This document shows, piece after piece, positions 832-15,947 of a stretch of DNA of 64,000 nucleotides. The stretch lies in contig JAGCGA010000033.1 in the NCBI GenBank assembly GCA_017649855.1, forward strand, positions 1,016 through 65,015, given 5' to 3'. The position numbers and the translations under genes are program-made. This stretch comes from Bacteroidales bacterium (lineage in GTDB: Bacteria; Bacteroidota; Bacteroidia; Bacteroidales; WCHB1-69). The notes under the pieces were generated by a model. It was given only the letters and a program-made list of their open reading frames with translations. It had not been told where the DNA came from and did not search any database. How positions within the stretch are numbered: position 1 is the stretch's first letter; every line of letters begins with the position of its first letter.

Positions 832-922
832 TAGAGTTGCCCATTTCTCGCATTATGGGAACTTGCCGAAATCATGGTGCGTCGTTAAACTTGGTGATAT
901 TGGTAAATGGCAAGCAGGAGGC
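830..922 (+). pseudogene. 5' remnant of a type I R-M specificity subunit (hsdS fragment)
   Basis: It translates to ...HYGNLPKSWCVVKLGDIGKWQAGG, which matches the usual HsdS N-terminus (LPxxW..xKLGDI...GG[TP]). The reading frame then runs straight into a GC-rich non-coding element at about 923. Confidence 0.35.
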
Positions 923-1145
923 AAGAAGCGTGCAGAACGGCAGCTAACGACCCACGACAACCGCCGCGGGCACGCCGGAGATGTGTATGGGTGTGGCGGG
1001 GTGGCGCGATCCCCCACCCCGGACCCCGCCAGGGGTCAAAGCTTGGTAGGACAACGGTGACACGTGCTGCCCCACCCGCGGCGCGGGGTGCATGTGCGAT
1101 GAGGGGGAAAAGGAATCGGCGCGGAAATGAGGCGCGAGGCGACGA
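923..1145. repeat. GC-rich multi-hairpin element A (REP-like)
   Basis: There is an abrupt jump to GC-rich sequence inside an AT-rich island. It contains palindromes such as ccccacccgcggcgcgggg and ggaccccgccaggggtc. Bases 1017-1051 are the reverse complement of 14602-14635, with about 29 of 35 positions matching by eye. Confidence 0.5.
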
Positions 1146-1306
1146 TCACAAATGACAGCCTAACGCCTCGCACCTGTCCTTCCGCACCACGCGGTCGCGC
1201 ATGGGGGAAGGATTTTTAACGTTGCGGGCGATGTTTTGGACAAGTTCACGGTAATTGTCGCTTCCATCATCTTTTTTGTGGTAATAAGGCTTGATAGAGT
1301 TTGTCC
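1146..1306 (-). pseudogene. 3' remnant of an abiH paralogue
   Basis: The minus-strand translation is NSIKPYYHKKDDGSDNYRELVQNIARNVKNPSPMRDRVVRKDRCEALGCHL*. It aligns residue for residue with the C-terminus of the intact gene at 2178-3431 (VSIKPYYHQMDENKDDYRKLVQNIARNFTDPRLMRDRVVRKERCEPLGAK*). No upstream coding part remains. Confidence 0.75.
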
Positions 1307-1421
1307 CCACAGCCGAAAATTACACTATAATATCTCACTGTATTTCAACATCTTATAATTCACTCATATTTACTACTGACGAAATTTATCACTTTTAGTG
1401 ATTTTCGTCAATATATTTTTG

Positions 1422-1429
1422 TATCTTTG
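1422..1429 (+). promoter_or_regulatory. Bacteroidota -7 promoter box TATCTTTG (TAnnTTTG)
   Basis: It matches the TAnnTTTG consensus exactly and lies in an AT-rich context about 114 nt upstream of the ATG at 1543. Confidence 0.45.
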
Positions 1430-1542
1430 CAAAAAATTACTTATACGGTTGTAAATAACTGAAAACTAACAACTGACAACTGATACAGGTATCTAGTTTC
1501 CATTTTTTTATACATTTGCCGCATAATTTAAAACAATCGAAA

Positions 1543-2175
1543 ATGAAGAAAACAGCAATATTTTTAGTCTTTTTTGTGCTTGTCGCACTACTCAACGCTC
1601 AGAATCCAGCCTTAAGCGTTCCTAAGTTCAAGGGTATTGAAATCACGGGGACTGTTGACCAATTTGGCAGCAAGCTTACCAACCAGGGTTTCAAATTCTT
1701 GGGGAATGAAGATTATGGCTCTGTTTACATGGGCAGTTTTGCAGGTATAAATGATTGTCTTGTAATCTTAGTCCCTGTTGTGAATTCTAAGGATATTGCC
1801 TCGGTCAACGTGATTATTGGATTGACACTTTCCGATTACGATGTTTATACTTATGAATCTTGGGACAAACTTCTCAACGACTACAACAATTTAAAAGACC
1901 TTTTGACCCAAAAATATGGAGAACCCACTGAAGATAATGCTGGTTTTGCAGAAGATGCCTCTACGGGTAATTCATTTTTAAAACTACTTTCCGTCAAGGA
2001 AGGGCAATGTGAATACTATTCCATCTGGGGTGATTCCGACGTTGACAAAATGATGGTGGAATTAGCCATCAAGGGCGGCAAAAGCATGGGCTACGAAGCG
2101 GCGGTTATCACATTACACTATTGGAATGTTGATAAAACCAGAGATTCCCAAAAAGAGATACTGGACGATTTATGA
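1543..2175 (+). CDS. secreted hypothetical protein (signal peptide, no lipobox)
   Basis: The internal Met at 1543 gives MKKTAIFLVFFVLVALLNAQ, a classic signal peptide, so the start at 1516 in the track is unlikely. I recognise no family. Confidence 0.55.
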   Translation: MKKTAIFLVFFVLVALLNAQNPALSVPKFKGIEITGTVDQFGSKLTNQGFKFLGNEDYGSVYMGSFAGINDCLVILVPVVNSKDIASVNVIIGLTLSDYDVYTYESWDKLLNDYNNLKDLLTQKYGEPTEDNAGFAEDASTGNSFLKLLSVKEGQCEYYSIWGDSDVDKMMVELAIKGGKSMGYEAAVITLHYWNVDKTRDSQKEILDDL

Positions 2176-2177
2176 TT

Positions 2178-3431
2178 TTATTTAGCGCCTAACGGTTCAC
2201 ATCTTTCTTTTCGCACCACGCGGTCGCGCATGAGACGCGGATCAGTAAAATTGCGGGCGATGTTCTGCACCAATTTGCGATAATCGTCCTTGTTTTCATC
2301 CATCTGATGATAATACGGTTTTATGGAAACACAATTCGGATGTTCAAAAAGAGTGGAAAGAAGTGTTCGGTCTGTAACACCACAAGAGTGCCCCATTATG
2401 CAAATCTGGTAAAAATCCGATTCAATGAAAGCGAGCATTCTCCGATAATTGGAAGCATCAAGATAACGAAATGATTTGATGTGACGCAAATATTCATTGT
2501 CGTTTTTCTTCATAAGCACATTGTATTCGTCATCACGCTCATCCCCATATCCGAAGATAACGCTCTTTGGATTATTAAGTGTCCCGTGAATGTGATTGGC
2601 CTCAAACTTGCCCGGGTTTTCCGATTTAGGAAGGTACATGTCTGCAGTGTTAGTGTAGTTGAAATTGAGAAGCATAATGTTGTCAGGTAGTCGGTATGCC
2701 GGACATGCACTCTCCATAACATTATCGAATATACCAGAACGAATATCTGTCGCAAATTCGTTCTTAAAGTATTTAATAGAACTTTCTGCTGTCAGTAAGG
2801 ATCCATAATCTGTATAATATCCATCAATCAGTTTTTCCCATTCAACATCATCATAATTCAACCGATCCTTCATCATCTCATCCCATTGACTTTTTGATCC
2901 TATGGCTATTTCTTCTTTAGAGATTGGTGCCAATATCTGTTTTTGGATAGTAGGATTGAAGGAATATGTTGGTAGAGAATTCAAATATTCAATGAGTTTT
3001 TCCTTGATGAATTCTAAATCGTCATTAATCTGCTTCGGATCATCACTTGATTTTAAGAAAGCGTAGTAGATGTCTTCAATACTACACCAAGGTTTATATA
3101 TTTCTTTGCAAATTTTCTCAAATAAAAGGCTTGAATTGTAATAATCACATAGATTTCTGTCTCGTTGTGCTATTTCTAATACTTCTTGTTCAGTCCAAGG
3201 TTCATTAGGTTGACTTTTGCAGTAATGATATTTCCACACATCATACCAATTGACTAAATTAATGCTGTCCGATAAAGTAAAGGAGTAAAATCTGTCTCTC
3301 AAAGTTCTCCCACATTCATACAATAGTCGCGCACCCCATTCTTTCCTATACCAATTAATGAAATCAGAATAACGCGTAGGTAGTCTATGTGCCAAATCGA
3401 AGCCGTTACCGATTAGAACCAGTCTGTTCAT
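2178..3431 (-). CDS. AbiH-family abortive-infection protein
   Basis: The N-terminus MNRLVLIGNGFDLAHRLPTRYSDFINWY is the hallmark AbiH start (IGNGFDLAHGLPT.Y.DF). At 417 aa the size is typical. Confidence 0.75.
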   Translation of the reverse strand: MNRLVLIGNGFDLAHRLPTRYSDFINWYRKEWGARLLYECGRTLRDRFYSFTLSDSINLVNWYDVWKYHYCKSQPNEPWTEQEVLEIAQRDRNLCDYYNSSLLFEKICKEIYKPWCSIEDIYYAFLKSSDDPKQINDDLEFIKEKLIEYLNSLPTYSFNPTIQKQILAPISKEEIAIGSKSQWDEMMKDRLNYDDVEWEKLIDGYYTDYGSLLTAESSIKYFKNEFATDIRSGIFDNVMESACPAYRLPDNIMLLNFNYTNTADMYLPKSENPGKFEANHIHGTLNNPKSVIFGYGDERDDEYNVLMKKNDNEYLRHIKSFRYLDASNYRRMLAFIESDFYQICIMGHSCGVTDRTLLSTLFEHPNCVSIKPYYHQMDENKDDYRKLVQNIARNFTDPRLMRDRVVRKERCEPLGAK

Positions 3432-3486
3432 ATTTTTCTTGTTATTGAAAAATCATTCAATATACACCACATTATCATCACATCCA

Positions 3487-4218
3487 CTATTTTTCTTTTG
3501 ATTTCCCTCCCGCAGCATCTTCTGAAATTGGCAACGCAATAAATTCATTCAATTCCTTTCTTCTCAATCTCCATTGAGGAAGATAGTGCGTTAGGATGGC
3601 TTCAAACATTTTATTGTGATTCTTGACCTTCAAATGGGTCAATTCATGTGCCACAACATATTCAATACAGGAACGCGGAACCCTTGCAAGTTCCAAATTG
3701 AAGAGTAAATGCCTTTTCTTGTTGATGCAACTCCCCCATTGTGAACGCATTAATTTGACCTCCCATGTGACATCGGGCTCTTCCATTTTATTGGTCCATT
3801 CAGCAACCATCTCGGACAACAATGACTTTAATTCTCTCCTTTGCCATTCTCTTAGCACCTCTGCACGATGTTCAGTTGTCGTCCCTGGCTGGACTGTCAT
3901 TATTAACCAATCACCCTGTTTGGTAATTGTATGACTACATCTCGGTTTTTCCTCAATACGAAGACGGTAGCGTTGCCCGAAATGGTAGTATGTCTCGCCA
4001 GTCTCATAATTACGTTCGGTTTGCCTTGCTTGTTCAAGAACTTCCCTTCGTTTTTCTTCTATCCATTCCCATTTTGATATAATAAACGAACGAATATCAT
4101 TATCATCAAGATATTCGGGTGAAGACACGTGAACACGAGCATCTGGAGGATAAACCGCCAAATGCAAGTTTTTTATATTCTTGCGTTCTACTGCTATCTC
4201 AATTCCGTTCAGTTCCAT
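3487..4218 (-). CDS. DUF45/YgjP-like (M48-family) zinc metallopeptidase associated with type I R-M
   Basis: It carries the WGSC motif and HELTHL (HExxH). Its ATG at 4218 overlaps the hsdR stop codon as TGATG. The track's TTG start at 4221 is an alternative. Confidence 0.8.
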   Translation of the reverse strand: MELNGIEIAVERKNIKNLHLAVYPPDARVHVSSPEYLDDNDIRSFIISKWEWIEEKRREVLEQARQTERNYETGETYYHFGQRYRLRIEEKPRCSHTITKQGDWLIMTVQPGTTTEHRAEVLREWQRRELKSLLSEMVAEWTNKMEEPDVTWEVKLMRSQWGSCINKKRHLLFNLELARVPRSCIEYVVAHELTHLKVKNHNKMFEAILTHYLPQWRLRRKELNEFIALPISEDAAGGKSKEK

Positions 4219-7200
4219 CAATCAGGAAATTCTATAGTATGAGCGATGATTATCCCTAAAATATTTTCTGCTTCGAAACCCTCACCTTTTAAAGCTTTCT
4301 CTATCTGCCTTAACAATTGCTTCTTGATTTGCTTGTTCTGCCTGAATCTGGGTTGAGCAAATTGTTTAGCTATCGCATATATTCTTAAGGTTAGTTCTAT
4401 GTTCCCGCCCAAATTATCACACAGATTTTTCTTTGCGGCAGTGTCGAGGCGAGCATCCACAACATTGCCTTGCATCAATTCCTCACCAATCTTCTTGATC
4501 TGCTTCAAAAATTCCTTATACTCTATGACACCTTGTCGCAATTCTTCCAATAAACGATTAATACGATCAGAAAAACGCCTATATTCTTCAGGGTTTTGCT
4601 CGCGTTTACGATTAACGACACGACGGACATTCGCCGTCATAGTTTCAGCTACTCCACGCTGACCTCCCAACTCTTGTTCTGCTTCTATATCTACTTCAAC
4701 ATCTCCCGTCAACTCATTTATACTGATAATATCCAAGAAAGAAAAATCATTCAATTCTGCTAATTTCTCACTTCTAGGAGCAACGATATATCGGTCAAGC
4801 AGGCTGCGCATTTGCGCATCGTACAGTTTCATATCCACATAGTCGCCACTTCGTTGCATCAAGGCGTGACGTAACTCGTCATAGTCTTTCACCTTCCGAT
4901 AAATGCTTTCTGTTTCTTCTTTTGTAAACCCAGCTTCTTCCATCTCCATTGCAATGGCTGCATAACGACGGGACAAACGGTTTACTGCATTGTAGAAATC
5001 CTCACGTTTTGTAGCATTCTTAATAACCTCTGCTGCTTGTTCGTCCACAGGCGTATCCGGCTTGAAGCAGAAATAGTCGAAGAAGTTATCCAATTTCCGA
5101 GGCAATTCTACCGGTTCACACAATCGCTCAACATTTTGCAAAGCCTTTTCCAGTTCTTCACGACCTTTCTTTAATCGAGACTTTAACAATTCTGCTATTT
5201 CATCCTTTTGGAAGCCTTCAGTAGTTTCGCCATTTGTGTAACTCTCAATGGCTCCTTCAATAAAGTTGAACAACCCCCTGTAGTCAACGATATAACCAAA
5301 CTCCTTCTCTTCGCCATTCAGTCGGTTTACTCGACAAATAGCTTGGAATAAAGTGTGGTCTATCATCTTTCGGTCAAGATAGAGATAAGTTGCAGTAGGA
5401 GCATCGAAACCCGTCAACAATTTATCTACCACAATGAGCAACTTCATCTCGGCAGGACGGTTAATGAATTGGTCTTTTGCCCATTCCTCAAATTGTTCAG
5501 GAGTACGCTTGCCCATCATCTCCTTTGACCACTTATATTTCAGTTCTTCCTCCGTTTTCTTTTCACCAGCAAAACCAGAGGCCAAATTAATATCGGGTTC
5601 ATAGCTTGAAACGACCGCACAATGATTGGTAAAACCCTCTTCCTTGAACAAAGACCAATATTTATATGCCTCATAGATACTTTCGCAAACCAGCATGGCA
5701 TTACCATAGCCACCTGTTAGAGCCGGCTTTGTTTCCATATCAAATAGGATGTCGGCTATGACTCTTCTCATAGGTTGGTCACTGCTATAGATATTCTGTA
5801 ATTGCGCCCACCTGTCTTTCAGTGCTTCTTTGGCCTTTGGCGTAAGTTGCTGGGTGTGAATTTCAAAGAGCGCATTCAGCTTATCTGGGTCTTGCAATTC
5901 CTTTTCTACATTTCTTGCTTCGTAACGCAAATCTAGGATGACACCATCTTTTACAGCTTCATCGAAACGGTAAGAATGTATATAGCGGCCAATATTATCC
6001 TGACTTGACTTGCGTTCACCTTTCTTCAACAATGGTGTACCCGTGAAACCAATCATCATGACGTTTTCGCCCATAATCATCCTCATGGCCTTGTGCAACA
6101 AACCGCCTTGTGTGCGGTGACATTCGTCAATGAAAACAAACAGATTGCCTTTTGCCTTGAAATCCACAGGCAATTTCTCTGCCACTTCCTTTAGGTATTG
6201 ATCTATTGAACGCTTTCCAGCCTTTTGATATTCCTCTAAATTTTCTTTATCCGACGATGCACCAAATTTATGAATAAGTGTGGTGATCATCCATGGGGCT
6301 GTTGCATCTAACTTTGTCAACAGATCATTGCCGCTCTTGGCATGGTAAAAATCAATGTTATGATTCTTCAAATCAAGCAAGCCTGAATTGCGCAAGCCAT
6401 TGGTAATTTGCTTGTCAAGTTCGTCACGGTCGGTAATAATAACAACTCTTGCATCCTCAATATTCTGTTTAATCCATTTTGCCAGCCACACCATCGTGAG
6501 GCTCTTGCCCGAGCCTTGTGAATGCCAGATAATACCGCTGTCCTTTTTTTCAATGCGAGGGATGGCCGCGCGAAGTGCAAAGAATTGATTGGGACGCGCC
6601 ACTTTCTTTGTGCCACCATCATAAATAATACAATACTGTATGAAATGTATCAATCGCGTAGGCTCCAACATCTGCAACACTGAACGGTCCAACTCATTCT
6701 GAACATCGGCAAATGTTGGCTTGTCAAGCTGTTCATCATCGCTTATACCTGTAGGCTCTTTCCAATGCAAATAGTATTTCTGAGGTGTACAAGTAGTTGC
6801 ATAGAACAACCCTTCACTTGGATTGCCAGCCATACAAAGTTGCGAAGTGGTAAAAAACTGCGGAATATAACCTGATTGCTGGTTACGATAGTTCTGACGG
6901 ATGCCCTCTGCTACAGGAATGCCCTGTCGTTTCAACTCCAGCACTACCATTGCAATGCCGTTGATATAAACCACAATGTCTGGGCGACGGTGTTCCGTTA
7001 CAGGCAGACCATCACACCTAACCGTTACTTCTTCGGCAATCTCAAAGATATTGTTCTTCGGATTTTTCCAGTCAACCAGATGCACGGTCAGGTCTGTTTC
7101 GTTCAAGCCTCTGTGGATACTGACGCCATAGCATAACCGTTCATAAACCTTTTCGCTGGTTTCCATCAACGTCTCGAAGTTAGAACACTGCGCTATTTCC

Positions 7201-7421
7201 TCTTTCAGTTTCCTAACAGCCGACTTCGCCTGTTCACTTGTCAATTTCTGCTCACTTTGCTTCGTCAGAAAATCCATCAAGGACTCTTCCCGCAAATTGC
7301 TGTTTTCCACCTCTTTCAGGTTGCCGATATATTGATAGCCAGGCAGCCTGTCCTTGACAAGCCTCAACACTTGCTCCTGCGTCTCACGTTCACTTTGGGT
7401 TATGTTGTCAATGAATAGCAT
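4218..7421 (-). CDS. hsdR: type I restriction endonuclease subunit R
   Basis: The protein is 1067 aa. It has an N-terminal PD-(D/E)xK-like nuclease motif (RPDIVVYINGIAMVVLELK), a Walker A motif (SQGSGKSLT), a DEAH-type box (FIDECHRTQ) and helicase motif VI (QAICRVNR). Confidence 0.9.
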   Translation of the reverse strand: MLFIDNITQSERETQEQVLRLVKDRLPGYQYIGNLKEVENSNLREESLMDFLTKQSEQKLTSEQAKSAVRKLKEEIAQCSNFETLMETSEKVYERLCYGVSIHRGLNETDLTVHLVDWKNPKNNIFEIAEEVTVRCDGLPVTEHRRPDIVVYINGIAMVVLELKRQGIPVAEGIRQNYRNQQSGYIPQFFTTSQLCMAGNPSEGLFYATTCTPQKYYLHWKEPTGISDDEQLDKPTFADVQNELDRSVLQMLEPTRLIHFIQYCIIYDGGTKKVARPNQFFALRAAIPRIEKKDSGIIWHSQGSGKSLTMVWLAKWIKQNIEDARVVIITDRDELDKQITNGLRNSGLLDLKNHNIDFYHAKSGNDLLTKLDATAPWMITTLIHKFGASSDKENLEEYQKAGKRSIDQYLKEVAEKLPVDFKAKGNLFVFIDECHRTQGGLLHKAMRMIMGENVMMIGFTGTPLLKKGERKSSQDNIGRYIHSYRFDEAVKDGVILDLRYEARNVEKELQDPDKLNALFEIHTQQLTPKAKEALKDRWAQLQNIYSSDQPMRRVIADILFDMETKPALTGGYGNAMLVCESIYEAYKYWSLFKEEGFTNHCAVVSSYEPDINLASGFAGEKKTEEELKYKWSKEMMGKRTPEQFEEWAKDQFINRPAEMKLLIVVDKLLTGFDAPTATYLYLDRKMIDHTLFQAICRVNRLNGEEKEFGYIVDYRGLFNFIEGAIESYTNGETTEGFQKDEIAELLKSRLKKGREELEKALQNVERLCEPVELPRKLDNFFDYFCFKPDTPVDEQAAEVIKNATKREDFYNAVNRLSRRYAAIAMEMEEAGFTKEETESIYRKVKDYDELRHALMQRSGDYVDMKLYDAQMRSLLDRYIVAPRSEKLAELNDFSFLDIISINELTGDVEVDIEAEQELGGQRGVAETMTANVRRVVNRKREQNPEEYRRFSDRINRLLEELRQGVIEYKEFLKQIKKIGEELMQGNVVDARLDTAAKKNLCDNLGGNIELTLRIYAIAKQFAQPRFRQNKQIKKQLLRQIEKALKGEGFEAENILGIIIAHTIEFPD

Positions 7422-7433
7422 AACAAATAGGGT

Positions 7434-9248
7434 TTAGTTGTTCTCTTGAGGCACAAAACCATTGGCGCGCATCCAGTCAAGTCCTGTTTGCCAGCGGTTA
7501 CGGCTGATGCGTTTCTTTGATTCATGCCAGTTGTTCAGGACTTCGTTCAGTATATCGTCATCCGTAAAGGGCTGATGGCTTTGCAACAAGTCACCCCATG
7601 CACTGTAAAGGGTCGCGATAATCTCGCACTGCTCCGTTGGGCTGGATTTAAAGGTGTCGATTATCTTCTCAAACATAGGCATAACATCAGCGTAGTATTT
7701 TTCGAAATACTTCTTGTGTCCGCCTCGGTTCTGCATAGGTATATACTGGTATCCTTTGTCCTCTTTCTTTGCCTCAAACCATTTTTGTTTCTTCAACTGG
7801 CTATCAATAGAGCGGAGCGCTCTGTTGTCGTATGGGCCAGCAGCATCCCTATGATAGTGGGAGTCTATGTTGATGTGGCAAAGATGCTCTGTCAGGAAAA
7901 TCAGCTTTTCCATCTTCACATGTCCGAAGGTAGGTTCCTCGCAAAGACAATCGGCTATCTCTGCCGCCAATACGCTTCTCTTGAAGTACACATTTGCCGC
8001 TTTTGCTTTCGGAAGGTCTTGTTGTTTCGTCTCTGCTTCTATCAATCTTATTTGCCCTGTCAGCAGTTTTTGCATCATCCCTTCTTTCAACCGTATATAT
8101 TTATCTCTTTCTTCTTCGAGAGATTCGATTTCGTTGTCAATCGTAGTGAGAACATTGGCAATCGCTACTTGTTCTTCGTATAAGCAAGGTAGATTAATCT
8201 TTAACGGAGCAATATCTTTGGGGTGAATATGAGGTTGAGCCCCGCCTGTTTGTAATCGAAATATATCCTTTTGCTTTAGCAGTAAAACATAGTATATAAA
8301 ATCGATGAAGTAATCATTGCCTTCCGATATTGTTGAACAGTCTGTCGCAAATATCGGTCCTTTATAGTATGAAATGTATCCCGCATTTGCACCAGAGGCA
8401 CTGATGGTAATTGTTCTACCATTACGATTAGCAACATTATGGAACCCAGCAGGTGTTATTCCTCCAGCAATTACAGGAATATTACCAAATTGATACTCTG
8501 ACGATTTCAACATACATCCACGTTGGATACTGACAATTGTTCCTAATTCACTCTCCACCCATTCCCCATCGAATCCCGGCAACCTTTTCTTTCCAGTCAG
8601 CAATTGCTGCATAGCACCTTGCTTTATCAAGCGTTTCTTCTTTATTGTCTTTGAAAGGGAAGAAATCAGCTTGTCAACACCTGATAATGCCTCCGCTATC
8701 CGGCTCTGCTCCTGCTTGTCTTTGGGATAAACGACAATAGTGGAATCAATGGCCTTCTTCGATAGAGAAAGAACTTTGATTCCTTGCATGTGTGGAAGCA
8801 ACTGATTGTGATACAATGAAGAATTAAAAAAATATCCCAAGTATTTTGGGGAAAACAAATCTTGCTTTGGTCTGTTGACAATTGTATGTAATCCTGCAAC
8901 AATATCACCATTAACATTAATCAGTTCTGTTGCCTTTCCAGCTGTTTCGTCTTCAGCAGTATCAGCAACAATTATATCTCCTGAACGAAGTAACACATTT
9001 GGATTAATCGATATTCCTGTATCATCATTGATGTATGGTAACTCATCTGTTTCAGCGTCAACAATTTCTCCAAATTTCACAAGGACATCACCATAGTGTA
9101 CATTTCGCACAATTCCACTTTCATAATTCAAGCAGTCTCTTGATAATGTATTGGAATTAACATGAAGGAAAGTTTCTCCAACCGAAGACTTTTCCCAGTC
9201 TTCAGGAATCAACCCTATCTCCGTCTGTTTGAATTTTGTTTCAATCAT
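7434..9248 (-). CDS. hsdS: type I R-M specificity subunit with an extra C-terminal domain of about 200 aa
   Basis: It has two TRD halves, each followed by the conserved helices (KRLIKQGAMQQLLTGKKRL and YIRLKEGMMQKLLTGQIRL). The canonical HsdS ends near aa 404, but the ORF continues to aa 604. Confidence 0.85.
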   Translation of the reverse strand: MIETKFKQTEIGLIPEDWEKSSVGETFLHVNSNTLSRDCLNYESGIVRNVHYGDVLVKFGEIVDAETDELPYINDDTGISINPNVLLRSGDIIVADTAEDETAGKATELINVNGDIVAGLHTIVNRPKQDLFSPKYLGYFFNSSLYHNQLLPHMQGIKVLSLSKKAIDSTIVVYPKDKQEQSRIAEALSGVDKLISSLSKTIKKKRLIKQGAMQQLLTGKKRLPGFDGEWVESELGTIVSIQRGCMLKSSEYQFGNIPVIAGGITPAGFHNVANRNGRTITISASGANAGYISYYKGPIFATDCSTISEGNDYFIDFIYYVLLLKQKDIFRLQTGGAQPHIHPKDIAPLKINLPCLYEEQVAIANVLTTIDNEIESLEEERDKYIRLKEGMMQKLLTGQIRLIEAETKQQDLPKAKAANVYFKRSVLAAEIADCLCEEPTFGHVKMEKLIFLTEHLCHINIDSHYHRDAAGPYDNRALRSIDSQLKKQKWFEAKKEDKGYQYIPMQNRGGHKKYFEKYYADVMPMFEKIIDTFKSSPTEQCEIIATLYSAWGDLLQSHQPFTDDDILNEVLNNWHESKKRISRNRWQTGLDWMRANGFVPQENN

Positions 9249-9259
9249 TGCAATTTACT

Positions 9260-11713
9260 TTAAAATTCAACACCCATTTCTTGAAGATAACCCTTCACAA
9301 TATCGCGATAGCGGTTTACGTCGGCTTCCATCTCTGGTAGCGTCACCTTATACCGTTCGTTCAATGCCGTGATAGAAGTAATGATGTTTTGATGCTCAGC
9401 GGTCATCAAGGCTTGCAAACGGCTCTGCATGTCGGGCATCCACTTGTCATCAAACACCATCGTGCGTATTTCTTCTTCCCTCAAAGCCTTGTACTTCTTC
9501 AAGACATTCGCTGTGAGTCGGGCAACTTTGTCTTTCAAGTTCTTCTTTAGTTGCTCTTGCTCCTTGAAATGCTTCAAGAAGTCCTCCCACACAGGTATAG
9601 TGTCAGCATTTTCCTTGGGATTATTCTTACCATCCTTCCACAAAAAGCCAACGGCTTTGCAAAACTTTGCATTCACCTTGTCGCTCTCAATATCCTCAAA
9701 AGCATCAGCATATTCCTCCATAATGGTTCCCATTGCCACCTGTTCTGCGTCTATCAACTGCCGAGTATTGGTCACATCGGCTTGTTCCTTGGCAAAATAA
9801 CGATTGACAAGGATTGAGGAAGGCACGAGGTCGCAGGTCAAGTCCTCATAGCTGTAGGTTTTCTTTACTTCACCCTTTTTGTTGGTGGGCAGTTCCACGG
9901 TCACCTTCCAACCATCGCGACTAATCAGATAAAGGTCATCCTGCATTGTCACATCATTCCAGTAGGTCATCAGTTCATCATAGACAGCGTATGCATCGAC
10001 CAACGAACGACTGGACTTGAAAATGCGTAATATCTCGTCGCTCCAACGAATAATAGCCTTGCGGGGTACACTGCCAACACCCAGCGTTTGCAATTCCTCG
10101 TGCATAAACTGATGCCATGTTTCAAAAGCTTTGCCGTAATTGTCAGCCTGTAGCAGATAACTCTCATCTTGTTCTATAAGCTGGGCTAAATGGCTGCCGG
10201 CTTCTTTAGTCAGTTGCAAATAGCCGTCGTTCTCGTAGGGCTCAAATATCTTGTCGCGAAGCGACGGGCACACATTCCATAGTGTTTCCAAGGAATCAAT
10301 ATCAGCCAAAGGCAAGCCTCCATGAATATGGGCATGGAGATTTTGCTCAACTTCAGTAGAGCGTGGCGTAATGTAGCGGGGAATGTTCAGATTGTATTCG
10401 TTGCGTTCTATTTCTTCCCATTCCACCAAGCGGCAAAAGTGGTCTATCTGCTTTCCGGCCTCCCACGCATCACTGATACGGCGGATGTCCTGCTCACGAA
10501 GTCTGTTCTTTGCACCGTCCTTCTTGAATCCCTCTTTTGCATCCATCATAAAAATACCTTTTGAGGTTGCAGCGTTTTTCTTGTCAATAATGATGATGCA
10601 GGCCGGAATACCAGTGCCATAAAACAGGTTTGAGGGAAGTCCAATGATGCCACGTATCACCTTTTTGTCAATCAGATGTTTCCTGATTTTGGCTTCGGCC
10701 TCGCCTTTTTCTACCGAGCCACGGAACAACACGCCATGAGGTAGGATACAGGCACCCATGCCATCTGGTTTTATCGACTCGATGATGTGCAATAGAAACG
10801 CATAGTCTCCCTTGGATGTTGGCGGCACACCAATGTCCTTTTTCCATCGGCTATAAACATCATCTTCTTTGGCCGACTTCATCCACTTCTTCAGGGAAAA
10901 CGGAGGATTGGCAACCACATAGTCAAACTGGTCAAGCTTGACACCATGAGTATGCAAAGGCGTGTTCAATGTATCACCTTGTTGCAGGTCTGCCGTCATC
11001 ATGCCATGCAGAATCATATTCATCTTGGCCATGCTTATGGTAGAAAGATCTTTCTCCTGACCATAGATGCCAACGTTTACACCCTCTTTGGGAGCCTCGT
11101 CTCTGGCGCGAAGCAACAACGAACCCGAGCCGCAGGCAGGGTCGTAGATGTTTATTTGCGGACGATGGTCTTTGCTGATGCCAATAATGCGAGCCATCAA
11201 ACGGCTTACCTCGGCAGGAGTATAGAACTGTCCTTTAGACTTTCCCGACTGTGAGGCAAAATTGCGCATCAGATATTCGTATGCATCACCTATCAAATCG
11301 TCGTCACCAGCTCGGTTGGTACCGAAGTCGAGGTTCTTGTTTTCAAAAACTTCAACGAGACCCGTGATGGTATCAACCTTGTCCTTCCCCTTGCCCAACT
11401 TGTCTTCATTGTCGAAGTCGGCATTGACGAACACATTGTCAAGTCCAAAAGCGTTAGCTATTTTCGCCAACTTCACATTGATTTGCTCACCAATATCATT
11501 CTTGTGCTTCAGTTTGCGAATCTCATCGAAAGTGCAATCATCAGGCAGATCCTCCATCATGTCCTCATCTCCAGCCTTCTTCTTATCGCTGATATATTTC
11601 AAGAACAGCATGACCAGCACATAGTCCTTGTATAGACTTGCATCCATACCACCACGGAGTGCATCACAGCCCTCCCACAGCATACTATATAATTGTGATT
11701 TCTTGATTGCCAT
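9260..11713 (-). CDS. hsdM: type I R-M N6-adenine DNA methyltransferase subunit M (long form, 817 aa)
   Basis: It has the HsdM N-terminal domain (KSQLYSMLWEGCDALRG), SAM motif I (DPACGSGSLL) and catalytic motif IV (NPPF in VVANPPFSLKKW). A helical tail of about 330 aa follows. Confidence 0.9.
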   Translation of the reverse strand: MAIKKSQLYSMLWEGCDALRGGMDASLYKDYVLVMLFLKYISDKKKAGDEDMMEDLPDDCTFDEIRKLKHKNDIGEQINVKLAKIANAFGLDNVFVNADFDNEDKLGKGKDKVDTITGLVEVFENKNLDFGTNRAGDDDLIGDAYEYLMRNFASQSGKSKGQFYTPAEVSRLMARIIGISKDHRPQINIYDPACGSGSLLLRARDEAPKEGVNVGIYGQEKDLSTISMAKMNMILHGMMTADLQQGDTLNTPLHTHGVKLDQFDYVVANPPFSLKKWMKSAKEDDVYSRWKKDIGVPPTSKGDYAFLLHIIESIKPDGMGACILPHGVLFRGSVEKGEAEAKIRKHLIDKKVIRGIIGLPSNLFYGTGIPACIIIIDKKNAATSKGIFMMDAKEGFKKDGAKNRLREQDIRRISDAWEAGKQIDHFCRLVEWEEIERNEYNLNIPRYITPRSTEVEQNLHAHIHGGLPLADIDSLETLWNVCPSLRDKIFEPYENDGYLQLTKEAGSHLAQLIEQDESYLLQADNYGKAFETWHQFMHEELQTLGVGSVPRKAIIRWSDEILRIFKSSRSLVDAYAVYDELMTYWNDVTMQDDLYLISRDGWKVTVELPTNKKGEVKKTYSYEDLTCDLVPSSILVNRYFAKEQADVTNTRQLIDAEQVAMGTIMEEYADAFEDIESDKVNAKFCKAVGFLWKDGKNNPKENADTIPVWEDFLKHFKEQEQLKKNLKDKVARLTANVLKKYKALREEEIRTMVFDDKWMPDMQSRLQALMTAEHQNIITSITALNERYKVTLPEMEADVNRYRDIVKGYLQEMGVEF

Positions 11714-11715
11714 TG

Positions 11716-13665
11716 TTAATTGTCTTTTGTGTTATGACTTTCGTCAAATTCTTTTTCCAGTCGTTCCCGTAATCCTTTACGACAAAAATAATCTTTAAAC
11801 TTTGTCTTCCTTAAGAGCAATGTTCCAAATGTTGTTGCTACTGCAGCACCAATTGCAATAATAATAGACCAAATTGTTGGAAGAGCGGCCTTATAAAATT
11901 CGTTTACGCACCACAAAGCACAGATTGCAAGAATAAGTATAACATTTATCCATGTATCTTTGGCCAATTTACTCATTTTTGAATTAACGAACTCATCTTT
12001 ATCTTTTAGGTATTTGTCTTTTTCTAATAATTTGAGGCGCTCGTTCAAACCTTGTATTTGCAAATCTTTTTCTTCTATCTTCTTATTTAGTCCCTCTATT
12101 TCTGTCTCTGCATCATGTTTCTGTTTTAGTTTGAGGTTTTCTTCTTCACTAGTATATTCTTTCAACTTCTTAGCGAACTGTTCAACTGTCACATTGTCTG
12201 CAAGTAATGATTCGTCAACCTCTTTTTGTGTCAAATGACCTTCTGCCATTCGAATGCATAAATTAAAACTATCTTTTTCGGTAATACTTCCTATTGACAA
12301 AGCATCATCAGCTCGTTTCTTTATTATTTTCAAAGTCTCTCTTGTTGGCATCTTTGACCTTCTATATTTTGTCACATAAGAAGCCAAACCTCCCTTGGTA
12401 ATATCACTGATTGAGATGTTTTGTCCCTGAGCCGGATTTGACAACCATAATAAAACCAATAATTCATTAGCACTTATCAAATACCTATCATGTATCTTCC
12501 TTCCATAACTATAATCATAAGGTGAATATGAATTATGTAGGAACCAGCACTTGGCGTCAACAAATTCTTTTATATTTTGCCCTCTTTTCTTTTCAACATA
12601 ATATTTTGCCACCACATCATTAAGTGCACTTTCTTTGTTGTTTTGTCTGCTTTGGATCAGGTCTTTATATTCTCTTGATTTACTTGCTTTTTCAACAATT
12701 TCCCTGATCTGAGCTTCCTTTATGATAGTAATACCTTTATCATAAATTGTCTTAAAGACATTATCCTTTATCCTTTCAAGAGTGGTTTTGTCTATATTTC
12801 TTCGAATACAAGCGCTAAACACATCTGCGCATTTCACAGACCCTATATAGTCTTTGTTAGCAAAATCATTGATGCGGTTGCTAAGCAATATTTGAATTTG
12901 TTCAAAAGTACTATAAAGCATAGAAAATCGATAACCTAATTGACGACACAAATCGAATACTTGATTACAAGTATGGAAAGCATCTTCCGTATTAAGGTCG
13001 ATCAAACTAATAAAGAAGTTGGTATCTAATAATAATTCAGCATCCGTAACTTTTGTGGTGATATTTTGCTTCAAATAAGACTCAATAATACTACCTAAAT
13101 AGATCTTACCCATCAATTCAAATATAGAGGAGTTGTCAAGCCGTTCAGAAACATATTTTGGCACAAAATAATCTAAATCCAGTAAGTCCGAACGTTTGTC
13201 GGAGAACAACTCCATATTTTGGGCAAGAATAAATTTCTTTAGATCCTCAAAATCAAATTGATAACCATTTTCTTGGCAATAGGTACAATAATCATCTTTT
13301 AAAAGATTAATATTCTGTCCTTCCTGCTCGAACAATTCGTCAATATCATTAAACACATAACTTTTAATAATGAAAGAACCATCATTAAATAGTTCGAATA
13401 TGTTTTTATCATTTATTTGATATTCAATATTCTCTAATATCTTGCCAAGTATCGGCAGAGGAATGGAAATTTCAAATACAGCAAATATTTTGTCAGAGAT
13501 TTCTGTTAGTGAACGTCCCTTAAAATCTATAAGTCCGTGTTCTTTAGCATATTCTGATAAAGCTTTCTTCACCAGAGGAATATATAATTCTGATATAGCA
13601 GCCTTAGAAGAAGATGTTTCTTTCAAGTATCCAAGTAGCGAATATGTTGCTAACAATTTATCCAT
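11716..13665 (-). CDS. uncharacterised 649-aa protein with an N-terminal domain, a PIN-like DTN motif, a coiled coil and two C-terminal TM helices
   Basis: LLLDTNFFISLIDL at aa 211-224 is a typical PIN strand-1 motif. A heptad-rich segment spans aa 505-560 (EENLKLKQKHDAETEIEGLNKKIEEKDLQIQGLNERLKLLEKDK). Two hydrophobic stretches follow (WINVILILAICALWCV and LPTIWSIIIAIGAAVATTFGTLLL). Its stop codon lies 2 nt before the hsdM ATG. Confidence 0.6.
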   Translation of the reverse strand: MDKLLATYSLLGYLKETSSSKAAISELYIPLVKKALSEYAKEHGLIDFKGRSLTEISDKIFAVFEISIPLPILGKILENIEYQINDKNIFELFNDGSFIIKSYVFNDIDELFEQEGQNINLLKDDYCTYCQENGYQFDFEDLKKFILAQNMELFSDKRSDLLDLDYFVPKYVSERLDNSSIFELMGKIYLGSIIESYLKQNITTKVTDAELLLDTNFFISLIDLNTEDAFHTCNQVFDLCRQLGYRFSMLYSTFEQIQILLSNRINDFANKDYIGSVKCADVFSACIRRNIDKTTLERIKDNVFKTIYDKGITIIKEAQIREIVEKASKSREYKDLIQSRQNNKESALNDVVAKYYVEKKRGQNIKEFVDAKCWFLHNSYSPYDYSYGRKIHDRYLISANELLVLLWLSNPAQGQNISISDITKGGLASYVTKYRRSKMPTRETLKIIKKRADDALSIGSITEKDSFNLCIRMAEGHLTQKEVDESLLADNVTVEQFAKKLKEYTSEEENLKLKQKHDAETEIEGLNKKIEEKDLQIQGLNERLKLLEKDKYLKDKDEFVNSKMSKLAKDTWINVILILAICALWCVNEFYKAALPTIWSIIIAIGAAVATTFGTLLLRKTKFKDYFCRKGLRERLEKEFDESHNTKDN

Positions 13666-13692
13666 AATTATACAGTAGTAATCGCAATCAAA

Positions 13693-14358
13693 TTATTTCT
13701 CCCTCTCCAATCTAATCTCCCACAAGGTTTTCCCATTATGGCTAAAATACTTTGGTCCCTGGTAGGATTCGCTCTTGTTGTGCATTCCTTCGGGCAGGTA
13801 GGTGCCGCAAAAGGCAGAAAGGCTCCAGAGGCGGCCTTCATACTCCACCTTGTTTTTGCCTGCTACTTTTACAGGAAGGTTCAAAGCATCGAATATGATA
13901 GTGTCACCCACATTCAGGCCGATCATACTGAAATCAAAAGGTTTGCGTTGCTCTTTCTTCTCTTCCTTCTCTTTGATTTTCTGACCTTCCACAATTGGAT
14001 AAATCTGATAAGGCTTATCCGAATCATATCGCATAATGACGGCGTCCTCAATCGCACAGGCTATATCCATAAAAATGTCCAGTGCCACTTGTGGGTCAAC
14101 ATTGAAAAACTCCCTGTTTTGGCGTATGCGCAAATCAGTAAGACGATCTATCGTCTTATGCACTAACTTCTCCACCTCACCATATTTGACGGTTTTCATC
14201 GTGGCATAAATGTCGAATGGAAGTGGCACGGCTGTGTTATCCAATTCTTTTGAACGGACATCCACCGGGCGTGAACTCTTGCCTATTTTCACCCAATCCT
14301 CCTTAAAACTGGGATTCGTCAGAATGTAAACGTATCCTTCTTGCGGCTCTTTGGTCAT
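13693..14358 (-). CDS. T5orf172 / GIY-YIG-superfamily domain protein with an unassigned C-terminal domain
   Basis: The N-terminus GYVYILTNPSFKEDWVKIGKSSRPVDVRSKELDNTAVPLPF...EVEKLVHKTI...REFFNV fits the T5orf172 pattern. It is the first gene of the array. Confidence 0.7.
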   Translation of the reverse strand: MTKEPQEGYVYILTNPSFKEDWVKIGKSSRPVDVRSKELDNTAVPLPFDIYATMKTVKYGEVEKLVHKTIDRLTDLRIRQNREFFNVDPQVALDIFMDIACAIEDAVIMRYDSDKPYQIYPIVEGQKIKEKEEKKEQRKPFDFSMIGLNVGDTIIFDALNLPVKVAGKNKVEYEGRLWSLSAFCGTYLPEGMHNKSESYQGPKYFSHNGKTLWEIRLEREK

Positions 14359-14386
14359 ACAAAATGTTTTTCTACAATTACAGCCG

Positions 14387-14394
14387 CAAAAATA
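14387..14394 (-). promoter_or_regulatory. -7 promoter box TATTTTTG for the defence array
   Basis: The minus strand reads TATTTTTG, about 29 nt upstream of the ATG at 14358. It is the only clear TAnnTTTG box I see upstream of the co-directional array. Confidence 0.45.
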
Positions 14395-14399
14395 ACAAA

Positions 14400-14745
14400 T
14401 AATTGCAAAAAATCCGCATTTTCACACACCGGATTTCTTCGCCCTGCCCTCCCCTCCCGCGGCGCCTCTCGCCGTCATCAGGGCACGCGCGGGGCGCACC
14501 GCGGGCGTGGCCGGAACGCCATCCATCACACCCGTTCCGTAATCCACGACTACAGATATGGAACCCCTACGGGGTTGTCATATGGAGGCGGGGCCATGCA
14601 TTCCTACCGGACGTTGACCCCTGCGGGGTCTGGGGAATGACATCAAGGTATCTTGATGCATTCTATTACTACCCCGGCCTGCGGCCACCCCTTCTACCAT
14701 AGAAGGGGAATTTAGGGACACCGCATTCCATTGAACGTAAACCTG
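14400..14745. repeat. GC-rich multi-hairpin element B (REP-like)
   Basis: It is a chain of short hairpins: aatccg..cggatt, aacccctacggggtt, gacccctgcggggtc, catcaaggtatcttgatg and ccccttctaccatagaagggg. It shares the tcctacc..ttgacccctgcggggtc.gggg block with element A, in inverted orientation. Confidence 0.5.
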
Positions 14746-14771
14746 TTAAGTAATTGGAAAATAGTATTACG

Positions 14772-15947
14772 CTATGGCAGTTTGGACAATTCCCGATACA
14801 AAGCCAACCCTTTCGCCGTCAACAAGTATTTTTGGCGGGGATGTCGGGGAGATTGGGGGTACAACATGCGGACATAACCATCCGAAATGGCAGGGTTAAG
14901 ATGGTATTCCAAGAAATTGGGTCGATGTTTCAATCCTAACACACTCATAAGTTGAGATATAGAAAACTCATCACGTCCGATTATCCTTATCAGTTCAATA
15001 ATAAAAGGATTGTCTGTATGGAACAAATCCCGTACTTGTTCGGGTACTTGTTCGGGTACTTGTTCGGGTATTTGTCCTGTACTTGCAGGGGCCGCCAGAT
15101 TGGGCTGCAGGCTCCACTCCTTTGCGGGGTGGATATGCAGATATCGGTTTCTCAAATCCCATTGCTCTCCCAACAACATATTGCGGAAGAATCGCTCCAA
15201 ATAAACGGGAGAGTAGTCAATGCCTTTCACTGCACTCTTGTAGTTGGCGCGCACCAGCGCATTGCGAAAATACCAGGAATGATCGGCAAACATGTTGTTG
15301 TCTACCTTGAAACCGATGTGCCGAAGATAAAGAATGGTAAAGACCGCCGTGGTGCGGGTGTTGCCCTCACCAAATGGATGAATCTGCCATAATCCTGAAA
15401 CAAAGCGGGTGAGATGCGTTATGAATTCGTCAGACGAAACCCCTTGATAACTGTACTGACGTTCCTGTTCTATATCGTACTCCACGGCCCTTTGAAGGTC
15501 TTCCCAGTTGAGATAATTCACAGATTCGTATTCCAACACCCACTCCTTCTTGGAAATATCATAGTCGCGAACCTTACCGGCGTGTTTGAATACGCCTTCG
15601 AAAATCCTCCGATGCAAAGCGACAAATCCTTTGGAGCTAAAGTCAAAAGACTCAGAGGAGAGTATCTTGGTGATGTTGGCCGAAACTTTATCTGCCTCTT
15701 GCTTTTCGTCGTCATCGGGTTCACGCTTTGTCTTAGACAGATAATATGTTTTTATCAAATCACGCACCTCATCAATGTTGATTTCACCCTCAATGTGCTT
15801 GCGGGCAGTTTCTTTCAGATAGTCCGAAGTCGTAAGCCCGTCCACAGCCTGCAGTCCAATAGCAGTCTGCCAAATGGAGGCCTTTTCCTTTTTGCCTGGT
15901 TCCACCTGTCGGATGTATTCGTCAAAATCTGGGTATTGAGAGTTCAT
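14772..15947 (-). CDS. Fic/DOC family protein (AMPylase-type) with a C-terminal winged-helix-like domain
   Basis: It carries the Fic motif HPFGEGNTRTTAVF (HxFx[DE]GNxRxxR). The ATG at 15947 (MNSQYPDF) is more likely than the TTG at 15956 used in the track. Confidence 0.85.
   Translation of the reverse strand: MNSQYPDFDEYIRQVEPGKKEKASIWQTAIGLQAVDGLTTSDYLKETARKHIEGEINIDEVRDLIKTYYLSKTKREPDDDEKQEADKVSANITKILSSESFDFSSKGFVALHRRIFEGVFKHAGKVRDYDISKKEWVLEYESVNYLNWEDLQRAVEYDIEQERQYSYQGVSSDEFITHLTRFVSGLWQIHPFGEGNTRTTAVFTILYLRHIGFKVDNNMFADHSWYFRNALVRANYKSAVKGIDYSPVYLERFFRNMLLGEQWDLRNRYLHIHPAKEWSLQPNLAAPASTGQIPEQVPEQVPEQVRDLFHTDNPFIIELIRIIGRDEFSISQLMSVLGLKHRPNFLEYHLNPAISDGYVRMLYPQSPRHPRQKYLLTAKGLALYRELSKLP
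15032..15079. repeat. 12-bp tandem repeat (3 perfect copies and 1 degenerate copy) inside the Fic gene
   Basis: gtacttgttcgg occurs three times, followed by gtatttgtcctg. It encodes PEQVPEQVPEQV in the linker before the C-terminal domain. Confidence 0.9.

Follow-up and report, generated by a model that had tools for sequence, protein, structure and literature searches.

The hsd operon of this Bacteroidales genome raises the question of why the specificity subunit of a type I restriction-modification (R-M) system should carry some 200 residues beyond the point at which the canonical HsdS ends, and of what these residues might do. A first-pass annotation of the window (the whole 64,000-nucleotide stretch of DNA analyzed here) had proposed that the extension is a Panacea/SocA-like antitoxin domain linking the R-M complex to a toxin, with a neighboring PIN-like protein or a DUF45 peptidase as the candidate toxin. 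We examined the extension itself, its relatives in other genomes and the genes around it.

A specificity subunit with an additional C-terminal domain

The 604-aa open reading frame is a type I R-M specificity subunit with two TRDs and with HsdM and HsdR as neighbors (Table 1). Pfam Methylase_S (PF01420) matches aa 1–404 in two stretches (E = 1.9e-28), and the PADLOC model Specificity_I (PDLC03098) aligns aa 2–403 to model positions 13–439 of 443, while the PADLOC MTase_I and long Specificity_I models match the region that follows. As the first-pass annotation had described, the frame reads on for about 200 residues beyond KLLTGQIRL at aa 404 (nt 7437–8036); we refer to this extension as the tail. 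On the same strand, hsdM lies upstream with 11 nt between its stop and the hsdS start, and hsdR starts 12 nt past the hsdS stop, so that the hsdS–hsdR junction is too tight for a darTG-type insert. The gene for an unannotated 649-aa protein is also a member of the hsd operon. At the edges of the island, neither flanking repeats nor tRNA genes were found.

Table 1 Features of the hsd operon and subdivisions of its HsdS (nucleotide positions in the window)
Feature	Coordinates	Strand	Basis and remarks
YgjP-like / DUF45 (M48-type) metallopeptidase	3487..4221	(-)	Pfam PF01863, 1.4e-54; 4-nt overlap with hsdR stop
hsdR, 1067 aa	4218..7421	(-)	Pfam HSDR_N, SWI2_SNF2, T1R_D3-like
hsdS with C-terminal extension, 604 aa	7434..9248	(-)	ORF list, Pfam, PADLOC; stop codon counted in
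Predicted DarG-C-terminal-domain-like (probably Panacea-superfamily) domain, about aa 419–604, ~185 aa	7437..7994	(-)	AlphaFold2, hhalign, NCBIfam, dN/dS
Predicted flexible linker, about aa 405–418 (IEAETKQQDLPKAKAA...)	7995..8036	(-)	Low pLDDT; weakly conserved in family alignment
Canonical two-TRD HsdS body, aa 1–404, ending ...KLLTGQIRL	8037..9248	(-)	Pfam PF01420, PADLOC PDLC03098
hsdM, 817 aa (long form)	9260..11713	(-)	Pfam N6_Mtase 4e-104, HsdM_N
Unannotated protein, 649 aa, C-terminal transmembrane helices	11716..13665	(-)	2 nt upstream of hsdM

An AlphaFold2 model of the tail (210 aa, starting at aa 395 and built on a 48-sequence alignment) has a mean pLDDT of 89 and a pTM of 0.83, with values of 84–98 in the domain proper and a mean of 51–57 over the first 20 residues, which reach into the linker. 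The predicted fold is compact and helical with a single beta-hairpin, and the model indicates that the last ~185 residues of HsdS are an independently folding domain. Its motifs are YFKRxVLAAEI, FGHVKxxKLxFLxE, AAGPYD, SID, CEIIATLYxxW, NWHxSKKR and WM. The tail is kept by purifying selection, with dN/dS of 0.10–0.16 against close relatives. In an alignment of 230 tail domains, 35 columns reach at least 85% identity, and many polar residues, common to the forms fused to R-M subunits and to the stand-alone forms associated with sigma factors, are at least 97% conserved.

Single-sequence searches of Pfam, NCBIfam and PHROGs with the window tail gave no match, nor did PDB sequence searches with either the single tail or the 48-sequence family profile, and Foldseek of the tail model against PDB and BFVD returned nothing at E ≤ 1e-3. 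The best of the weak Foldseek matches were winged-helix proteins (MarR/ZitR, ScpB and MecI). A DNA-binding winged helix was considered and given a low rank, as conservation falls on helix 2, the GP loop and helix 5 and spares the 'recognition' helix and the wing.

Relationship of the tail to DarG and Panacea

As judged from profile comparisons, the tail is most closely related, among known domains, to the DarT-binding domain at the C-terminus of DarG (DarG-CTD), with Panacea/SocA more distant. By hhalign, the 230 tail domains align end to end with DarG-CTD (from loci L044 and L040 and from PDB 7YK3_B) over 174 of 187 columns, at a probability of 91.4% and E = 9.2e-7. The NCBIfam model antitoxin_DarG (NF048014) matches 28 of 48 family members, always in its non-macro half (best E 5.3e-11), and the PADLOC DarG model matches the family over positions 150–326 of 329 (E = 7e-11 and 9e-13, roughly 1e-11 to 1e-13). 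The window tail by itself falls below significance against both of these DarG models, and the kinship rests on the family profile. PDB 7YK3 is absent among the 50 Foldseek matches listed for the tail model. In direct alignments the tails are only 14–20% identical to DarG-CTD, the DarG of their own locus included, with motif blocks in common, and because this identity is so low we treat the tails as a sister family apart from DarG-CTD.

At roughly 185 aa, the tail is about as long as the DarG-CTD of DarTG2 (EPEC DarG aa 127–330; M. tuberculosis DarG CTD, PDB 7YK3 chain B), and the motif blocks common to the two are R-x-x-L-L, (E/K)-I/F-x-K-L-M/x-Y/F-F/L-x-x-E, G-P-Y, E-L/I-L/I-S/A-T and W-x-x-R/S-K. 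Like DarG-CTD, it is C-terminal in a larger protein and is found at the hsdS–hsdR junction of type I R-M operons. The carrier differs, as the tail sits on HsdS or HsdM whereas DarG-CTD sits on a macrodomain, and Pfam detects no Macro domain in the HsdS of the window. In DarG, this domain takes hold of the DarT toxin and obstructs its DNA-binding groove. [quoted passage not shown] 2023, it blocks the active site of DarT as an ssDNA mimic. Net charge gives no sign of an ssDNA-mimic surface on the tails, which have a median pI of 8.9 (6.5 for the window tail), compared with a median of 5.2 for Panacea.

The Panacea profile PF13274 does not match the window tail at E ≤ 0.1, and matches 3 of the 48 family members (best E 0.009). 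Real PF13274 proteins were fetched with a synthetic DUF4065 consensus that served as bait only. Aligned by hhalign to 120 such proteins trimmed to the domain, the tail gives a co-linear match with a probability of 24–28% (P = 6e-4 to 8e-4) and a score of 28.7, which exceeds a column-shuffled null (13.8 ± 2.8) by about 5 SD and compares with 11–16 for unrelated families; with untrimmed alignments the probability is 0.9%. DarG-CTD versus Panacea reaches 47%. These similarities suggest that the tail family, DarG-CTD and Panacea probably form one superfamily. Panacea/SocA (PF13274, DUF4065) and the tail both have a central-helix K-x-Q-K-L-x-Y followed by G-P-(V/Y) and, further on, a pair of helices that ends in W, both are compact and mostly helical with two short strands, and both often occur as accessory domains fused to other modules. 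However, the beta-hairpin of the tail model follows helix 3 and does not surround the GP motif as in Panacea, and the bicistronic toxin partner of Panacea has no counterpart at the window locus. No Panacea proteins were picked up when the collected loci were scanned by regex. The original assignment holds as far as an antitoxin-type lineage is concerned, but DarG-CTD replaces Panacea as the closest family, given the silence of PF13274 and the contrast between the two hhalign probabilities.

Distribution of the tail and its genomic neighbors

An exhaustive profile search recovered 1,954 clusters (50% identity) at E ≤ 1e-3, spanning many phyla, and the best matches are mostly proteins of 590–660 aa with the tail domain at the C-terminus. 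The domain is present in 169 species genomes. By tblastn, the tail has no match in the phage collection and one stand-alone homolog in the plasmid collection. One source labels protein P0030 'YwgA'. The family is large, formerly unannotated and without Pfam coverage, and the HsdS-tail fusion is widespread but undescribed. The tail occurs on HsdS, on a second HsdM, between HsdM and HsdS, or as a separate protein, and each of the R-M architectures (S-tail; M + M'-tail + S; M + M'-tail-S) has one tail per methylase core.

All five of the loci closest to the window (L003–L007) have the same in-frame HsdS-tail fusion, so the frameshift or the separate genes in close relatives that had been envisaged as an alternative are not what these genomes contain. 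One could still suppose that the tail is a functionless remnant, produced when a deletion joined the 3' half of an embedded darG to hsdS, or that sequencing or assembly introduced a frameshift, as the tail lies exactly at the hsdS–hsdR junction, which is the site of embedded darTG in related systems (PMC12255303). The data on selection and distribution in effect refute this extremely improbable reading: the low dN/dS is joined by a confident predicted fold, by the large number of clusters across phyla, by independent HsdM fusions and stand-alone genes, and by the in-frame fusion in all close relatives.

Two of the collected loci, L040 and L044, have the gene order HsdS~tail-DarT-DarG-HsdR, with a DarT match to PF14487 at 1e-61. 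DarTG modules inside type I R-M operons have been known since 2016, and in these two loci, which have DarT-DarG downstream of HsdS~tail, the gene order makes a physical tie of the R-M complex to a toxin plausible. In EPEC, DarTG is flanked by the hsdS and hsdR genes of an R-M system whose last gene codes for an M48 peptidase (PMC12255303). This RRDM island (rptR-hsdM-hsdS-darT-darG-hsdR-M48) and the window have the same skeleton, with a long HsdM, HsdS, HsdR and an M48/DUF45 gene translationally coupled to hsdR, and both have a DarG-related module between the HsdS body and HsdR. In the window, however, the module consists of only the non-enzymatic domain, fused in frame to HsdS, without the DarT toxin, the macrodomain or an RptR-like gene. 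The E. coli relatives that we looked at (L090 and L091) have an HsdS without a tail. A jackhmmer search with the DarG macrodomain recovered it in L040 and L044 only, and neither a macrodomain nor DarT turned up anywhere in the 64 kb of the window. Of the 66 fused loci, 64 likewise lack both, in the case of DarT out to 10 kb.

The homology to a DarT-binding domain, and the coexistence of tail and DarT in L040 and L044, could also mean that the tail is an orphan immunity device, which from its place on an abundant housekeeping-like complex sequesters DarT from mobile elements or from elsewhere in the genome; phages do carry orphan antitoxin-like genes against DarTG (PMC11825919, PMC11481870). 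We consider this very unlikely, as antitoxin–toxin recognition is usually specific while the tails are so divergent even from the DarG of their own locus, DarT is missing from the surroundings of nearly all fused loci, and the sigma-associated forms would be left unexplained.

A model built on the first-pass annotation has a Panacea-type antitoxin or adaptor hold a neighbor, either the PIN-like membrane protein of 649 aa or the DUF45 peptidase, in a latent state on the R-M complex, which would resemble the way PrrC is held. The 649-aa gene does belong to the same tight operon, 2 nt from hsdM, and four of the five loci nearest the window preserve it; the tail–Panacea similarity is weak but non-random, and domains of the Panacea type have many mutually unrelated toxins as partners (PMC8832971). 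Nevertheless, the 649-aa protein is confined to L003, L004, L006 and L007 of the nearest clade; L005 lacks it, as do the remaining tailed loci, which leaves its proposed role as tail partner unsupported. It has no significant match in Pfam, NCBIfam or PADLOC and no detectable toxin domain, the PIN reading having been made by eye only. The DUF45 peptidase fares no better as a partner: among the three tailed R-M classes, ii and iii lack it, and the gene is also found downstream of hsdR in E. coli systems with an untailed HsdS, as is an M48 peptidase gene in the EPEC RRDM island (PMC12255303). With PF13274 also blind to the window tail, we regard this adaptor model as improbable. The other cargo genes of tailed loci are diverse (YhcG/DUF1016-like, AlbA_2/Schlafen-like, Fic and RhuM-like) and none tracks the tail. 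In 11 of 43 complete operons, M, S~tail and R have no cargo gene among them, and therefore no locus-encoded toxin is consistently on hand. When HsdR and HsdM of tailed and untailed systems were compared, no additional domain clearly stood out as co-varying with the tail and thereby pointing to a docking site.

Stand-alone relatives of the tail lie directly downstream of ECF sigma factor genes and overlap them, which is the position of an anti-sigma factor, and these pairs lie divergently beside Bub and CBASS operons. ECF sigma factors are the main upstream partner family of the stand-alone forms (NCBIfam, Foldseek), while a second family has a weak NCBIfam match; no likeness was seen between the two partner families, nor between either of them and PDB sequences. 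We also asked whether the sigma and tail-protein pair might be CapK/CapS and ruled this out. Compared with cytoplasmic anti-sigma factors of ECF sigma factors, the stand-alone relatives hold the same gene position, beside the operon that is presumably regulated, but they have no recognizable anti-sigma domain, and their C-terminal domain is DarG-CTD-like. Elsewhere the same niche is filled by the stress sensors CapW, CapH+CapP and CapK+CapS (PMC13373217).

This gene arrangement, and the parallel with those stress sensors, would suit a reading in which the tail, instead of holding a toxin, senses a stress or phage cue (a DNA-damage product or an anti-restriction protein) and switches the R-M system between restriction and modification or alleviation, with the stand-alone relatives acting as sensing anti-sigma factors of immune operons. 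A sensory role has been suggested for accessory Panacea domains by Ernits et al. (PMC10440598), the polar residues conserved across R-M-fused and sigma-associated forms hint at a common ligand, and many tailed operons are without a cargo gene. Against this, the characterized relative, DarG-CTD, is a protein binder (PMC7003065), and the conserved residues may be a mere structural core, as in Panacea. On balance we find the sensor reading rather unlikely, if less so than the adaptor model.

A putative clamp tethered to the methyltransferase core

By analogy with DarG, there is about an even chance that the tail is a tethered antitoxin-type clamp or regulator with a putative partner. A predicted flexible linker of ~14 residues ties the tail domain to the C-terminal helix of HsdS; being tethered to HsdS, the tail is therefore present in exactly one copy per M2S1 methyltransferase core. 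It would work as DarG-CTD does, as a clamp on a DNA-acting partner protein, and would couple the activity of that partner to the state of the R-M complex. The anti-sigma position of the stand-alone relatives would fit such a partner-holding role. Both the binding of a protein by the tail and the choice of that protein are inferred from this analogy. In L040 and L044 the obvious partner would be DarT. For the window, the candidates in order of preference would be an R-M component, above all the HsdR motor/nuclease, then the 649-aa membrane protein, and then a DarT-like toxin acting in trans. With HsdR as the partner, the tail would be a built-in regulator of restriction.

The anticodon nuclease PrrC is kept latent by the EcoprrI type Ic R-M complex, and an attack on the complex sets off a second line of defense. 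The proposed clamp follows the same concept; PrrC is a separate protein encoded within the hsd operon, and HsdS is not known to have a dedicated PrrC-binding domain. No latent effector was identified in the window.

More speculatively, and we think it unlikely in this full form, the DarG-CTD-like family may serve as a general immunity 'clamp'. R-M cores would be wired through it to a DNA-acting effector (DarT in loci of the L040/L044 type, HsdR or another protein elsewhere), and the stand-alone forms would be a new type of anti-sigma factor controlling Bub and CBASS through a dedicated ECF sigma factor. If this were true, a disturbance of the R-M complex would set free or readjust a second activity, and the frequent embedding of DarTG in type I R-M operons would be explained.

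The crosstalk of DarTG with type I R-M systems has been a standing question since 2016, to which the tail would give a concrete physical link, testable because hundreds of HsdS and HsdM proteins bear the type of domain with which DarG holds DarT and because two loci adjoin DarT-DarG. A large family that is now hidden under 'restriction endonuclease subunit S' or 'hypothetical protein' can now be named and assigned a likely way of acting. Its stand-alone members might provide a new regulator, of the sigma/anti-sigma type, for the Bub and CBASS immune operons, and if the tail regulates HsdR, it would represent a new way of controlling restriction.

The extra domain of the window HsdS and its operon

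The first-pass annotation held that the HsdS reading frame of the window runs on past its specificity body, and the 200 residues after aa 404 are borne out. Residues 1-404 form a standard two-TRD body (two Pfam Methylase_S matches; PADLOC Specificity_I over aa 2-403). In an AlphaFold2 model of the tail (48-sequence alignment; pLDDT 89, pTM 0.83), about aa 405-418 are a low-confidence linker, and the remainder folds compactly into eight or nine helices plus one beta-hairpin. The in-frame fusion is kept in all five nearest loci. When 1.84 billion representative proteins were searched exhaustively with the profile, 1,954 clusters matched at E <= 1e-3, the top matches being mostly proteins of 590-660 aa that carry the domain C-terminally. 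A genome scan found the domain in 169 species; carriers include Bacteroidota, Proteobacteria, Planctomycetota, Verrucomicrobiota, Acidobacteriota, Firmicutes, Spirochaetes, Chlorobi and one archaeon. Tail dN/dS against close relatives was 0.10-0.16 (HsdM, about 0.05). Because the tail is folded, fused in frame in relatives, widespread and of low dN/dS, a decaying remnant and an assembly artefact are ruled out, as is the frameshift that the first-pass annotation had raised as a danger. The tail is flexibly tethered, widely distributed and under purifying selection.

The fused gene lies in a tight minus-strand operon ordered T5orf172/PDC-S57, a 649-aa protein, HsdM, HsdS~tail, HsdR (1067 aa) and a DUF45/M48-type peptidase, with AbiH and Fic genes on the flanks (Pfam); the T5orf172 and Fic genes both adjoin the R-M genes on their upstream side. 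The gap between the hsdS stop and the hsdR start is only 12 nt, and the DUF45/YgjP-like gene is probably translationally coupled to hsdR, since it overlaps the hsdR stop by 4 nt. The peptidase has a weak SprT-like match (E = 2e-4), and its gene is also the last one in the EPEC RRDM island and in two E. coli systems (L090, L091). These two systems, which encode an RptR-like protein and an M48 peptidase, also share the long HsdM, of which aa 454-817 in the window (~360 residues past N6_Mtase) have no Pfam domain. G+C content shifts from about 40% to 55-60% near 16 kb, which suggests the edge of a low-GC defence island (AbiH, R-M operon, T5orf172/PDC-S57, Fic); no tRNA gene or flanking repeat marking an island was found in window 1-20000. 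A 141-nt direct repeat (1158-1298 and 2187-2327, 71% identity) has its second copy at the 3' end of the AbiH gene, and the first copy could be what is left of another AbiH-like gene.

Coordinates of the R-M operon genes, tailed loci and stand-alone pairs
Feature	Sequence	Positions	Strand	Details
DUF45/YgjP-like metallopeptidase	window	3487-4221	minus	
HsdS~tail	window	7434-9248	minus	604 aa; Pfam Methylase_S x2, PADLOC Specificity_I
HsdM	window	9260-11713	minus	817 aa
649-aa protein	window	11716-13665	minus	2 nt upstream of hsdM
T5orf172 protein	window	13693-14358	minus	PADLOC candidate system PDC-S57, E = 9e-64
Fic protein	window	14772-15956	minus	Fic-like_C domain
HsdS~tail-DarT-DarG-HsdR	L044	2-5049		archaeon, Ca. 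Syntrophoarchaeum
HsdS~tail-DarT-DarG-HsdR	L040	425-5652		Planctomycetota
HsdM (HsdM_N + N6_Mtase) + tail + two-TRD HsdS, single chain	L079	3056-6394		1112 aa
same single chain	L082	2-2368		cut by contig end
Sigma + stand-alone pair	L001	7394-8744		
Sigma + stand-alone pair	L002	7363-8783		
Sigma + stand-alone pair	L083	6106-7552		plasmid NZ_CP120684.1
Sigma + stand-alone pair	L084/L085	7001-8430		
Sigma + stand-alone pair	L086, L087, L088	7001-8436		
Sigma + stand-alone pair	L089	6263-7698		

Relation of the tail to Panacea and DarG

The tail had first been called Panacea/SocA-like. Pfam PF13274 does not match the window tail, and it matches three of 48 tail-family members at noise-level E-values. 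For a remote-homology test, 120 genuine PF13274 proteins were retrieved with a synthetic bait. Comparison of untrimmed profiles was negative, and domain-trimmed profiles (230 tails versus 120 Panacea proteins) scored 28.7 (P = 6e-4, probability 28%) and aligned co-linearly across the KxQKLxY helix, the GP(Y/V) motif and a pair of helices further on. This score exceeds those of all controls, namely reversed sequences (12.6 and 16.7), sixty column shuffles (13.8 +/- 2.8, maximum 21.9) and unrelated real families (11-16), which argues that, at the profile level, the resemblance noted in the first-pass annotation is non-random, yet it falls far short of what family membership would require.

A closer relative is the C-terminal, DarT-binding domain of the DarG antitoxin (DarG-CTD). 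NCBIfam antitoxin_DarG is matched by 28/48 tail-family members (best 5e-11), always on model positions about 155-334, beyond the macrodomain, and the PADLOC DarG model agrees. By itself the window tail is below significance on DarG HMMs, and 7YK3 is not among the top 50 Foldseek matches of the tail model. A match at 8e-28 links the C-terminal half of the L044 DarG to PDB 7YK3 chain B, which is the C-terminal domain of M. tuberculosis DarG, and hhalign aligned the tail family with three DarG-CTDs, including L044 and 7YK3_B, over 174 of 187 columns (probability 91.4%, E = 9e-7). DarG-CTD against Panacea gave 47%, which places it, by profile, as a bridge between the other two families. The only part of DarG with a Pfam model is its macrodomain, hence the missing Pfam annotation of the tail. 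Identity is 38-65% among tail classes and 16-20% between tails and DarG-CTD, and the L040 and L044 tails are no nearer to the DarG of their own locus, which argues, from sequence, for an old sister family of DarG-CTD and not recent local duplications. We consider it very probable that the tail is a DarG-CTD-like domain of the Panacea superfamily.

Architectures and stand-alone relatives

Four arrangements were found among 80 fetched loci: (i) the class of the window, with HsdM (about 810-990 aa), HsdS~tail, HsdR and DUF45; (ii) HsdM (650-710 aa), HsdS~tail and HsdR, lacking DUF45; (iii) a plain HsdM of about 500 aa together with a tail-bearing second HsdM (707-750 aa), an ordinary HsdS and HsdR, a class that includes the single chains of HsdM, tail and HsdS in L079 and L082; and (iv) stand-alone proteins of about 260 aa. 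A separate plain HsdM gene lies just upstream of the single chain in L079. Every R-M architecture has exactly one tail per M2S1 core. The PADLOC 'MTase_I' and long 'Specificity_I' models already include the domain, unlabelled.

Each stand-alone relative is encoded just downstream of a small gene, often overlapping it. The main upstream partner family is a divergent ECF sigma factor, as some sources name it: TIGR02937 matches 31 of 34 members, and the top Foldseek matches of an AF2 model (pLDDT 88) are essentially all ECF sigma factors; a second partner family has weaker matches of this kind. At seven or more loci, one of them on a Tunicatimonas plasmid, the pair is transcribed divergently from Bub-type operons (small gene, Multi_ubiq, Prok-E2, ThiF, with or without BubE), and in L001 it adjoins CBASS. 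This niche beside immune operons is that of the swappable regulators CapW, CapH+CapP and CapK+CapS (PMC13373217); the pair was checked and is not CapK/CapS. The order sigma then tail protein parallels DarT then DarG, which suggests by analogy that the stand-alone domain may likewise hold its upstream-encoded, DNA-binding partner. The two genes resemble a so far undescribed regulator of immune operons, of the sigma/anti-sigma type.

DarTG in R-M operons and candidate partners of the tail

In L044 and L040, true DarT-DarG pairs directly follow HsdS~tail, ahead of HsdR (DarT, PF14487 at 1e-61; DarG, PADLOC DarG at 1e-140). These operons have two DarG-CTD-type domains, in HsdS and DarG, and one DarT. 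[quoted passage not shown] 2023, DarG-CTD is described as an ssDNA mimic blocking the DarT active site. In EPEC the genes run rptR-hsdM-hsdS-darT-darG-hsdR-M48, and the junction of hsdS with hsdR is termed a hotspot (PMC12255303). Fetched E. coli systems of the same R-M family have an untailed HsdS (412-457 aa) and other cargo, that is, extra genes among M, S and R, at this junction; the family can therefore do without the tail, which sits exactly where DarTG is otherwise embedded.

No DarT or macrodomain occurs in the window or in 64 of the 66 fused loci. Neither partner proposed in the first-pass annotation consistently accompanies the tail. The 649-aa protein, with no significant match in Pfam, NCBIfam or PADLOC and by eye a PIN-like motif ('LLLDTNFFISL'), a coiled-coil stretch and two C-terminal transmembrane helices, is conserved only in the nearest clade (L003, L004, L006, L007) and missing from L005; the DUF45 peptidase is missing from classes (ii) and (iii) and also accompanies untailed HsdS. 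Cargo across tailed loci is varied, and of the 43 complete operons, 11, spread over at least seven lineages, carry none among M, S~tail and R. A toxin encoded in the locus is thus not regularly at hand, and HsdM, HsdS and HsdR are the sole proteins shared by every fused locus. The tail could be a tethered antitoxin-type clamp or regulator of a partner protein, an explanation to which we give an even chance; a sensor domain is a serious rival. For a clamp or regulator in the DarT-less window, the leading candidate partner would be HsdR or the R-M machine itself, followed by the 649-aa protein and then a DarT in trans.

Type I R-M, the DarG C-terminal domain and DarTG inside R-M operons are already known. 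Our literature search found no description of HsdS or HsdM fused to the tail domain, and neither the fusion nor its breadth and one-per-core logic seem to have been described. The fusion makes the long-standing question of crosstalk between R-M and DarTG directly testable, and the stand-alone relatives bring to light a candidate new class of regulators for Bub and CBASS operons.
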